Below, one piece after another: positions 61,926-64,000 of a stretch of DNA of 64,000 nucleotides; positions within the stretch are counted from its first letter, which is position 1; the number at the start of each line of letters is the position of its first letter. Under the pieces are notes generated by a model. That model was not told the origin of the DNA. It did not search any database and worked only from the letters and a program-made list of their open reading frames with translations. Location: positions 2,048,001 to 2,112,000 of the forward strand of contig OX638340.1 of assembly GCA_951812955.1 (NCBI GenBank), given 5' to 3'. The position numbers and the translations under genes were made by a program. The stretch is from an uncultured Gemmatimonadota bacterium. Its GTDB lineage: Bacteria > JAAXHH01.

Positions 61926-64000
61926 CTAGTCCTGCATTTCGACGGACTTCCCGTCACCCGCTGCCAACTCAAGCGTCGAATCGAACACCGCCTCGCCCGA
62001 ATCTCCCAGTCGCAGCCGCGATAGCGCAAGCGCGCCGTGCAGGACGCTCAACTCGGCCTGCAGTCCTTCCCCGACACGCGACACAACGCACACGCCCCAC
62101 GCGAATCCGGTCGACCAGAAGTATCTGCCCGACCGGGCGGTCAAGGTCATGGTCTTCGTGACCGCCGAGTAGTTAAAACCGGTCAACGCAAGGTGGGCGG
62201 CCCAGGCGGCCATGGCCCGGGCGTAGTGATGGCCGCACTCGGCCTCGTCGAAGGGGTTCCTCCTCCGTCCGTCGTACCGATCGCGGATGTCCTGGATGCA
62301 CGAAATGCCCTCGTCCGCCATGCCCTCGTAGATCATGCCGATGGCGGCGGTGTATTCAAAACCGGTCATGACTTCGGTGAAGTACGAGAAGGGATTTTCG
62401 GGCCGGTCCTTCGGGTAGGACGCCATGAGCAGGGCCGATTCGTCGCCGAGGACGTAGGAGCGCATAACGTTCGTGTGCGCGTGGAAGTCCTCGAGCCGGT
62501 TGTACTTCAGGATGCTCTGCAGCGAACTACGGACTTTGCCGGAATCCGCGAGGTATCCCAGGCCACAGACATGGGCCATGTACTGGCCGACGAGCTGGTC
62601 CACCAGGCAGCCGGAACCGAGTTGGTAATCCGGATTTCCCAGATCCTTCGGCCCCATCCCCACCGTCAGGCCTTCCGCTACATCCTCCGCCCGCTCGGGC
62701 GCACGGATCTCGTGTTCGTAGTACTCCCCGTTGAAGAGGTTCGCGTCGGTCCAGGTGCGGCCGCGCTCGTATAGGTCCCGGCATTCCCGCGCGAAGTCGC
62801 CGTCCTCCAGATAGCGGGCCATTTCCTCCGCGGCCCGGAGGGCGCCCAGGTACCAGAACTCCATCTGGGGATTCGGACCGAAGTATTCGACGTCCATGGT
62901 ATTGTGCTGGCAGCCTTCCATCACGCCGTCGCAGTCGGCGTCCCACCCGCCGGGTATCCAGCAGAACGCCAGCGCCTTCTTGACCCCCGGCCATAGCGCT
63001 CGAAGCTGCTCGTCGTCACCCGACAGCTGCCAGTCCCGGTACATCTTCATTACGCAACCCATCTGGCCGTCGGCCGCCGCGCGATTGAAGTTGCGGGCCC
63101 GGGCCAGCGGCAGCCAGACGCGGAAGCTCATCAGGCCGTTCTCGTCGGTGGCGTGGGCAAATTCCACCTCGCGCATGGTCTGCGTCAGGTCGCCGAAGAG
63201 GAAGGCCGTGGACTGCTCGTAGTTCCATACGTGGGTGCAGGAACCCAGGCAGCACCCCGCCTCGTCGTGGCATCCCTCCCAGCCGTAGAAGCGGCCATCG
63301 GGCGTGCGGAAGCAGGTCTGGCTCCGCAGCGTGCTCAGGTTGAACAATGCCGCCTCCTTGACCACCTCCGGCAGGTCCGATCCGCAGAACGCCTCGACGA
63401 ACCGGAGCGTATTCACTTCCAGGCTTTCCAGATCGGGCACGACTTGCTCCACCACGTCCCAGGCGTCCTCGAACCGCGTCGTATAGTAGTTCCCGATCCG
63501 GTCTCCCGTGTCACAGCAGTCGTCGCCGCCCGCGCAGCAGTCACTGTTGTCGTCGCAACAGTCGTCGCTGCTGTCGTCCCCGTCCTCGCAACAGCCCTCA
63601 TCGCTCTCGCAATCGTCCGGACCGCCGTCACAACAGGCGTTTTCTTCGGTGGTCTCCGTATCACCGCCGACTGGCAGGTCTTCCTTCGTCGCCGGTGTCC
63701 ACGTGTACCGGTTGGGGAAATGCCAGGCCAGAACGAAGGTCACGCTTGCCGTTTTTTCCGGCGGCAGGTCGACCCGGGTCGCCAGGGAGGCGATGGGGCG
63801 GTTGTTGTTGCCGGCGTCCCGGTCCGAGAGCATGCCGTCCGCGCTGAAATCGTCCCAGAAGTCGAGTAGCGGGGTACCCCAGCGGTCGTCGCGCCAGGCA
63901 GTCCGGTAGCTGACCGTCTCCGCCGTGGTCGCCAGCGCCATCGTGCCCCACTGCGCGGCCTGACGGTCCACGCCCTTCGATGACATGAAGAGTCCGCGGT
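61926..64000 (-). CDS. glycoside hydrolase family 116 (GBA2-type beta-glucosidase/glucosylceramidase-like), N-terminus beyond window end; contains Cys/Asp-rich insertion
   Basis: C-terminal catalytic domain aligns to GBA2/DUF608 ('[43 protein letters not shown]', '[10 protein letters not shown]'); ORF open at window edge; '[45 protein letters not shown]' insertion. Confidence 0.75.
   Translation of the reverse strand, partial: [690 protein letters not shown]

Follow-up and report, generated by a model that had tools for sequence, protein, structure and literature searches.

The GH116 gene and its interdomain linker

The window analyzed here is a 64,000-nucleotide stretch of contig OX638340.1 from an uncultured Gemmatimonadota bacterium. 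At its far end, on the reverse strand, lies the 3′ part of a gene for a glycoside hydrolase of family 116 (GH116) in which the linker between the two main domains contains a tract of Cys, Asp, Glu and Gly residues. The gene is read as a single open frame of 690 codons and a stop (61926–63998), with the 5′ end beyond the window edge. From P0001, a full-length orthologue of 887 aa that is 94% identical to the window protein, it is estimated that about 197 N-terminal codons fall outside the window. The initial annotation of the product as a GH116 glycosidase is supported by Pfam, with the GH116 N-terminal domain (PF12215) matched at aa 1–191 (E = 2.6e-17, profile positions 172–310) and the GH116 catalytic domain (PF04685) at aa 310–600 (E = 3.9e-37). 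The best solved relative is ExoMA2 (PDB: 8ic6/8ic7), with E = 9e-94 over residues 10–669. The features of the gene are listed below with the evidence for each, including the predicted local distance difference test (pLDDT) of the AlphaFold model of P0001 and the template modeling (TM) score of its superposition.

61926–64000, reverse strand: 3′ part of the GH116 glycoside hydrolase gene, stop codon at 61926–61928 (translation, Pfam, ExoMA2 8ic6 match, P0001)
63708–63998, reverse strand: visible end of the N-terminal β-sandwich, closing in a conserved strand (PF12215; P0001-model strands E266-275 and E280-290)
63483–63725, reverse strand: interdomain linker from WHFPN to IGNYY, 81 aa here (variable in the family, median about 19 aa)
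63501–63644, reverse strand: Cys/Asp/Glu/Gly low-complexity tract, ENACC...CCDTGD, 48 aa (first to last Cys 63513–63635; pLDDT 26–37 in P0001)
62169–63479, reverse strand: (α/α)6 catalytic domain, approximate bounds (PF04685; P0001-model helices 376–803; Foldseek TM 0.76–0.79 to 8ic6)
63276–63278, reverse strand: predicted nucleophile Glu (GWEGC), aligned to ExoMA2 Glu431 (alignment; numbering from PMC10509167)
62892–62894, reverse strand: predicted acid/base Asp (HNTMD), aligned to ExoMA2 Asp557 (alignment; numbering from PMC10509167)
61929–62168, reverse strand: small C-terminal β-sandwich of the ExoMA2 type, absent from TxGH116 (P0001-model strands 806–885; PMC10509167)

The matches to PF12215 and PF04685 flank the tract and both lie in one frame. 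A frameshift artifact had been named at the outset as something that would refute the insertion; instead, GH116 domains are found on both sides in the same frame. In-frame variants of the tract are also carried by orthologues in more than 17 independent assemblies, some of them on contigs of 3.7–3.9 Mb. With the frame unbroken, homology on both sides, and so many independent assemblies, the possibility that the tract is a sequencing, assembly or frameshift artifact is therefore excluded and its probability is negligible. Two open reading frames (ORFs) of 238 and 245 aa run antisense to the GH116 gene on the forward strand (63153–63869 and 62037–62774). They are shadow ORFs without support as genes and are typical of DNA with 62% GC.

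Composition and repeat anatomy of the tract

The 48 aa of the tract comprise 16 Asp, 11 Cys, 7 Gly, 4 Glu, 4 Ser, 2 Asn, 2 Ala, 1 Pro and 1 Thr. Twenty residues are acidic, and basic, aromatic and large aliphatic residues are absent. The Cys residues (23%; the 12 first reported were one too many) form five CC pairs and one single within a span of 41 aa. The visible protein outside the tract has 16 Cys in 642 residues (2.5%) with one CC dipeptide, and at this background rate the binomial probability of at least 11 Cys in 41 residues is 4e-9. No comparable Cys tract was found in the other real or plausible ORFs of the window.

The description of CC pairs separated by acidic residues holds, and the repeat unit is a CC-[D/E]-x4 heptad. 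Across 18 tract variants, which are mutually related so that the counts describe regularity and not independent events, 169 of 180 Cys (94%) are paired, and 85 adjacent CC were observed as compared to 37 ± 5 (maximum 54) in 5,000 shuffles. The spacing from one CC to the next is seven residues in 35 of 66 cases, followed in frequency by 11 and then 14, and Asp or Glu directly follows 81 of 84 CC.

At the DNA level, Tandem Repeats Finder identified only a weak 12-nt repeat in the tract (3.2 copies, 70% matches). The 21-nt units inside a tract are 58–65% identical to one another, and Cys is encoded by a mix of TGT and TGC codons that differs between orthologues. Recent DNA slippage as the sole cause was rejected given the weak repeat and the divergence of the units. 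With units this diverged and codons mixed, the Cys-Cys-acid pattern has therefore been retained through synonymous and unit-level turnover. These data bear on the main rival to a functional tract, namely a neutral and tolerated low-complexity expansion in a permissive surface linker, produced by replication slippage or unequal recombination. In this case, the tract would be a GC-rich, triplet-like stretch of TGC, GAC and GGC, and the CC-acid pattern a memory of the duplicated seed unit. Against a neutral expansion, the units have diverged in DNA, yet the pairing of Cys is nearly complete and 96% of the pairs are still followed by an acidic residue.

Spacings of the CxxC or CxxCxxC type, which would mark a zinc ribbon, zinc knuckle or Fe-S cluster, do not occur in the tract, where the arrangement is CC-x5-CC and variable. 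When the tract alone was searched against the PDB and Pfam, nothing was returned besides a meaningless Granulin match (E = 9.5), and no Pfam metallothionein was matched. With a profile built from 15 tract variants, 3,331 word-sharing candidates were retrieved from a database of 5.8 billion proteins; none reached E ≤ 10, the GH116 proteins themselves included, and the search is uninformative for a query this short and of such low complexity.

Distribution, origin and turnover of the tract

The linker was extracted from a MAFFT alignment of 270 retrieved relatives and was aligned in 130 representatives at 50% identity. Its median length in the representatives is 19 residues. Loop Cys are absent from 88 representatives and number one in 27 and two to five in 15; no representative exceeds five. 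The tract is thus lineage-specific, as had been proposed from the window sequence.

Among the closest 120 proteins, the linker may be considered in terms of three states. In the first, it is an 18-residue Cys-free loop (RQTWTPKGNEQDRIGNYY), and the proteins have N-termini that are longer by about 30–90 residues; the five that were inspected (P0028, P0034, P0045, P0109 and P0220) carry Sec or Tat signal peptides. In the second, the loop has about 30 residues and two CC pairs (for example EEGCCDGGACCDDSDRIGNYY; CCxGGxCC) and belongs to cytoplasmic proteins at 62–70% identity, some of which are labelled Zixibacteria or Latescibacteria. The third, long state of 51–89 residues, with 6–15 Cys and 3–7 units, is restricted to P0001–P0018 at 78% identity or above, and the tract itself ranges from 26 to 61 aa across these variants. 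One long-form protein is labelled Gemmatimonadetes bacterium, and the long-form lineage is apparently Gemmatimonadota. A metagenome scan for the end of the tract (CCDTGDxIGNYY) gave three loci, with one new variant.

The ends of the long form are conserved. The first unit is E-x-A-CC and the last two are CC-x5-CCDTGD[RL]IGNYY, with variable units between them. Conserved end units with a variable middle, together with the graded loop states, are the pattern expected of an in-situ expansion of CC-x4-CC. From the sequences, the tract looks like an expansion of the short CC-x4-CC loop motif rather than an acquired domain.

The tract evolves far faster than the enzyme and is hypervariable. Outside the tract, P0007 and P0010 share 98.4% identity over 806 ungapped residues, while the tract has 15 and 10 Cys, respectively, and several indels. 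Similarly, P0004 and P0008 share 94.5% identity in the rest of the protein, with 13 and 8 Cys in the tract. In P0008 and P0010, Cys have been lost from the middle units. A neutral expansion is favored by several of these observations: the indels between near-identical orthologues all fall inside the tract, the middle units decay, and the length of the tract varies more than twofold. It is further favored by the tolerance of the same linker for other sequence, since two distant representatives (P0121 and P0220) have unrelated insertions of about 200 residues at this position. The linker is a permissive insertion point and a general hot spot in the family.

Other observations on distribution argue against a neutral expansion. 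No member of the clade, down to 78% identity, lacks the tract. In addition, a CC-x3-4-CC motif is found again at this loop in three branches that are deeply separated, represented by P0200, by P0201 together with P0226, and by P0231, and the CC-acid pattern is found in other proteins. The nearest sampled relatives of these branches, at 50–57% identity over the catalytic domain, lack the motif. Finally, low-complexity regions rich in Cys are reported to be uncommon among bacteria (PMC11132505).

Predicted structure and cellular location

Secondary structure assignments made with DSSP for the models of P0001 and of P0019, a short-loop orthologue, place the tract after the last β-strand of the N-terminal sandwich and before the IGNYY turn and the first long helix of the barrel. 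An insertion between the β-sandwich and the barrel had been described from the sequence, and both models agree with it. In the P0001 model, residues 295–363 have pLDDT of 26–37 and no secondary structure. The P0019 model, for which the alignment was richer and more varied (119 sequences), is very confident overall (mean pLDDT = 95.9, predicted TM score (pTM) = 0.95), and its CCDGGACC loop is the weakest stretch; the blocks 301–310 and 311–320 average 58 and 70, the lowest of the model, and residues 310–313 are the sole segment with pLDDT below 50. According to the models, the tract is probably disordered without a fixed fold. Predicted disorder also counts in favor of a neutral expansion.

The initial annotation suggested that a compact metal-binding (Zn/Cu/Fe-S) or disulfide-knot module had been grafted onto the glycosidase, and proposed structure prediction as a check on whether the Cys form a compact metal site. 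The dense Cys, the conservation of the first and last CC units and the cytoplasmic location of the protein are compatible with a folded module. In contrast, length and Cys count are hypervariable among near-identical enzymes, the tract has a pLDDT of about 30 and no secondary structure, and even the four-Cys short form is the least reliable part of an otherwise confident model. The lack of CxxC or CxxCxxC spacing, the lack of a Pfam or PDB match for the tract and its origin in situ from a loop also count against such a module. The low pLDDT and the length variation together speak against a compact cluster or knot, and a folded module of this kind is considered very unlikely.

The cytoplasmic location proposed earlier was examined with orthologues, which also supply the N-terminus that lies beyond the window. 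The N-terminus of full-length orthologues reads MTWPVLHHYD..., so that the conserved domain already begins at residue 3 and the conserved LPLGGIGTG motif at residue 19–20. There is therefore no room for a signal peptide. This result argues further against a disulfide knot, as does the lack of loop Cys in the exported relatives. A crude rule for signal-peptide-like N-termini was negative for 31 of 32 proteins with a CC loop; inspection of the N-terminus of the remaining one (P0185) suggests that the rule called it wrongly. The association between a Cys loop and the absence of a signal peptide gives p of about 1e-9 in the redundant set and Fisher p = 1 in the 50%-identity representatives. As a consistency check only, the absence of signal peptides fits reduced thiols and not disulfides.

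With thiols that are normally reduced in the cytoplasm, the linker could also be a redox switch or sensor, in which vicinal and neighboring thiols form reversible disulfides under oxidative stress that constrain the linker and modulate activity, or a sacrificial thiol buffer. An MsrB (SelR) gene located four genes upstream in relatives lends this idea weak support. A switch needs defined partner cysteines, and here their number and spacing vary freely. Strong acidic flanking raises the pKa of a thiol and disfavors its reactivity, so the composition of the tract would lower the reactivity that a redox role depends on. No thioredoxin-like partner is encoded nearby. A redox function is thus regarded as quite unlikely.

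Identity of the enzyme

The initial annotation described the catalytic domain as GBA2-type, a label that is imprecise. While the match to ExoMA2 is nearly full length, those to TxGH116 (about 1e-10) and human GBA2 (5e-8) are limited to about 120 residues. A Foldseek comparison is in agreement, as the P0001 AlphaFold model (pTM = 0.81) superimposes on 8ic6 with a TM of 0.76–0.79 and 32% identity, and on TxGH116 with a TM of about 0.6–0.68 and 17–18% identity. ExoMA2 has been assigned to a new GH116 subfamily 4; in this enzyme, Glu431 serves as the nucleophile and Asp557 as the acid/base, and His446 and Arg483 distinguish recognition of arabinofuranose (Araf) (PMC10509167). The numbering of the deposited chain is shifted by four residues, consistent with an N-terminal SKIK tag. 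When this offset is applied, Glu431, Asp557, His446 and Arg483 of ExoMA2 align to the Glu of GWEGC, the Asp of HNTMD, the His of CTHVW and the Arg of SFR, respectively. These positions are invariant in 64 relatives. The comparison of subsite −1 covered the equivalents of His446 and Arg483.

The gene product is predicted to be a retaining glycosidase that is ExoMA2-like and GH116 subfamily-4-like, a placement based on search scores and fold superposition. The β-D-Araf specificity of ExoMA2 was not transferred to the window protein because the identity is about 32% and the gene context shows no D-arabinan locus. No NCBIfam family was matched by the enzyme. The family includes at least 7,579 proteins at E ≤ 1e-10 (90%-identity clusters) and 3,820 proteins at E ≤ 1e-3 (50%-identity representatives). 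The subfamily 4 clade is therefore very large and almost uncharacterized, with activity known for one relative only.

A second Cys cluster is present directly after the predicted nucleophile (63237–63275, reverse strand). It is nearly invariant across the family, and C401 and C405 are at least 90% conserved in 119 diverse relatives; ExoMA2 has the last two Cys only (SCEGTC). Beside the active site, this second cluster might form a structural disulfide or bind a metal.

Gene neighborhood

The window neighbors of the GH116 gene are a PcRGLX/GH127-like gene, a TPR/GWxTD gene, and AstE_AspA and DAO genes. The proposal that this end of the window is a glycan-related neighborhood stands in part. The PcRGLX/GH127-like ORF (56488–59220, forward strand, 910 aa) has three PcRGLX-like domains (RIFT-barrel, β-sandwich and α/α-toroid) and weakly matches the catalytic domain of GH127. 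The protein lacks a signal peptide and is cytoplasmic, and its gene is a conserved convergent neighbor in relatives at 78–86% identity (L002 and L003). The TPR/GWxTD gene (59294–61768), which encodes a signal peptide, does not share this conservation, as it is missing from one of the two syntenic contigs.

Past the window end, relatives have genes for SHMT, MsrB (SelR), an epimerase-like MR_MLE-family enzyme, Amidase_2 and a Na/Ala symporter upstream of GH116 on the same strand. No D-arabinan utilization locus (GH183 endo-arabinanase, GH172 and ABC transporter) was found around the window gene or in the neighborhoods of its relatives. In loci L001, L002 and L003 (approximately 5900–10000), the MR_MLE, Amidase_2 (AmpD-like) and Na/Ala symporter genes form a run directly before GH116 on the same strand, and in L003 only 17 bp separate the run from the GH116 gene. 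An AstE_AspA-type amidase is encoded at 55362–56279 of the window. Together, the upstream run and this amidase resemble a set for the recycling of cell-wall peptides and may hint at the real substrate of the enzyme.

CC-acid tracts in other bacterial proteins

GTDB species genomes were scanned for CC-[DE]-[DE]-x3-CC-x5-CC, which gave at least 120 stretches, many being out-of-frame or antisense noise. The in-frame ORFs among the matches listed, with the same periodic CC-acid pattern, include small signal-peptide proteins of Planctomycetota, Bacteroidota and Proteobacteria (L008, L014, L043, L080, L104, L115 and L117), C-terminal tails of DUF3347 proteins in Verrucomicrobiota (L012, L024 and L106), linkers of CD1247_Nterm zinc-ribbon proteins in Clostridia (L026, L027 and L112) and a DUF1292 tail (L076). 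The CC-[D/E]-x4-5 repeat is not covered by any Pfam or NCBIfam model.

Three of these loci have a metal-related context. In L043, from an Agitococcus metagenome-assembled genome (MAG), a 48-aa signal-peptide ORF (approximately 5100–5250) ending in CCEDHQPCCEHQHPCCDE is located between a divergent MerR-family regulator and CopA-CopB, and its product is a candidate periplasmic copper-binding peptide. In L024, a DUF3347 protein with a CCEERRECCDEIGACC tail is encoded directly before an outer-membrane efflux protein. In L022, the genes for MarR and an ArsP-type permease are followed by one for a CC-heptad protein of 61 aa. These contexts are analogies, and the proteins are not homologues of the GH116 tract.

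On the basis of these resemblances, (CC-[D/E]-x4-5)n might be an undescribed and widespread bacterial repeat for soft-metal binding, occurring in secreted peptides, DUF3347 tails, zinc-ribbon linkers and the GH116 loop. This generalization is an unlikely one. If it were true, an abundant glycosidase would serve in addition as a tunable metal buffer of the cytosol or come under regulation by metals, with the number of units adjusted rapidly between strains by metal exposure.

In Planctomycetota, the secreted (CC-x5)n proteins adjoin a conserved signal-peptide protein of about 125 aa with a CCH motif (L008 2316–2705, L014 2746–3123 and L089 2079–2471). Its C-terminus reads ...LHCVWQC in L008 and ...LKCVWRC in L014, and these two copies have no Pfam match. 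The pair may be an uncharacterized two-gene module. Long 21-nt tandem arrays that read 'ACCDDV*' were also found in L005 (7362–7535) and L102 (approximately 4196–4300; Pyrinomonadaceae MAG OZ244725.1). With a stop codon in every unit, these arrays were rejected as Cys-rich proteins and are non-coding DNA repeats.

Proposed role of the tract

The anatomy of the tract, its restriction to one lineage, its hypervariability, its predicted disorder and its cytoplasmic location are well supported and are held with high confidence. The following model is proposed. A short acidic CC-x4-CC motif would have been present in the ancestral linker from the β-sandwich to the barrel. In a single lineage (apparently Gemmatimonadota), CC-[D/E]-x4 units would then have duplicated and turned over, giving rise to a tract of 26–61 residues that is polyanionic, thiol-rich and predicted to be intrinsically disordered, and that lies outside the catalytic machinery. 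Such a tract may work through its composition and chelate soft metals such as Cu(I), Zn and Cd as a flexible, multidentate ligand of thiolates and carboxylates. The enzyme would thus have an appendage of its own that resembles metallothioneins or phytochelatins and is kept reduced by the cytoplasmic location.

Taken as a whole, a disordered expansion that acts as a flexible soft-metal chelator is the favored but tentative reading, put at slightly below an even chance because its metal-binding step is one that we infer. Several points weigh against it. The low pLDDT may reflect an uninformative alignment and the omission of metal from the prediction. The link between Cys loops and missing signal peptides is confounded by phylogeny and is gone in the non-redundant representatives. 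The loss of Cys from the middle units of P0008 and P0010 indicates that most CC pairs are individually dispensable, which fits weak or no selection equally well. The examples with a metal-related context were hand-picked among the matches listed (at least 120), many of which are out-of-frame chance matches. There are no metal-related genes around the GH116 gene, either in the window or in the loci of relatives, and this context also favors a neutral expansion. Lastly, nothing accounts for a chelator on a glycosidase.

A neutral expansion accounts for the hypervariability and the decay of units equally well; it accounts less well for the persistence of the pattern and its recurrence. It is seen as somewhat unlikely, though it is the main rival to the chelator.

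The evidence shows no new system or activity. What was previously undescribed is a lineage-specific Cys-acid low-complexity loop in a GH116 subfamily-4 enzyme, and the CC-heptad pattern that it displays has no curated family. Should the tract bind metals, it would provide a natural and ribosomally made phytochelatin-like chelator embedded in a housekeeping-type enzyme, and it would give entry to an unannotated CC-heptad class in many bacterial proteins, with relevance to metal homeostasis and bioremediation design. If the tract is neutral, it would be a clean case of Cys-rich low-complexity drift in a bacterial cytoplasmic protein, a class reported as rare.

Comparison with known systems

As an enzyme, the GH116 protein may be compared to ExoMA2 (MIAR_33170), an exo-β-D-arabinofuranosidase of GH116 subfamily 4 from Microbacterium arabinogalactanolyticum (PDB: 8IC6/8IC7; PMC10509167). 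Both have an N-terminal β-sandwich, an (α/α)6 barrel and an extra C-terminal β-sandwich, and both are without a signal peptide, hence intracellular. The two differ in the linker, which is Cys-free in ExoMA2 (RRGWHGHIIFDDALEDGAPDLRDELGPIVRNHY), and in the GH183/GH172 D-arabinan locus of ExoMA2, which is not present around the window gene. TxGH116 and human GBA2, both of GH116 subfamily 1, share the family fold (TM of about 0.6–0.68) and identical Pfam domains; however, the identity of 17–18% and a sequence match of about 120 residues contrast with the full-length match to ExoMA2.

The other bacterial (CC-x5)n tracts have the same CC-[D/E]-x4-5 periodicity as the GH116 tract. Their host proteins are unrelated and many are exported, so the resemblance is one of composition and period and not demonstrable homology. 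A literature search on CC-repeat metal peptides and CopL found no verifiable direct precedent.

With respect to metal-binding peptides, the tract resembles metallothioneins in its high Cys content (23%), its CC motifs (five pairs) and its lack of aromatic residues. Low-complexity regions rich in Cys and Lys mark metallothioneins (PMC11132505). In contrast to a small free-standing metallothionein, the tract forms a loop inside an enzyme of 887 aa, its Cys vary in number and position, and it is Asp-rich where metallothioneins are Lys/Ser-rich. The composition of acidic residues plus Cys also resembles the (γ-Glu-Cys)n of phytochelatins, from which the tract differs in being ribosomally made. Peptides of the (Glu-Cys)n type have been designed as metal sequestrants (PMC4292183).

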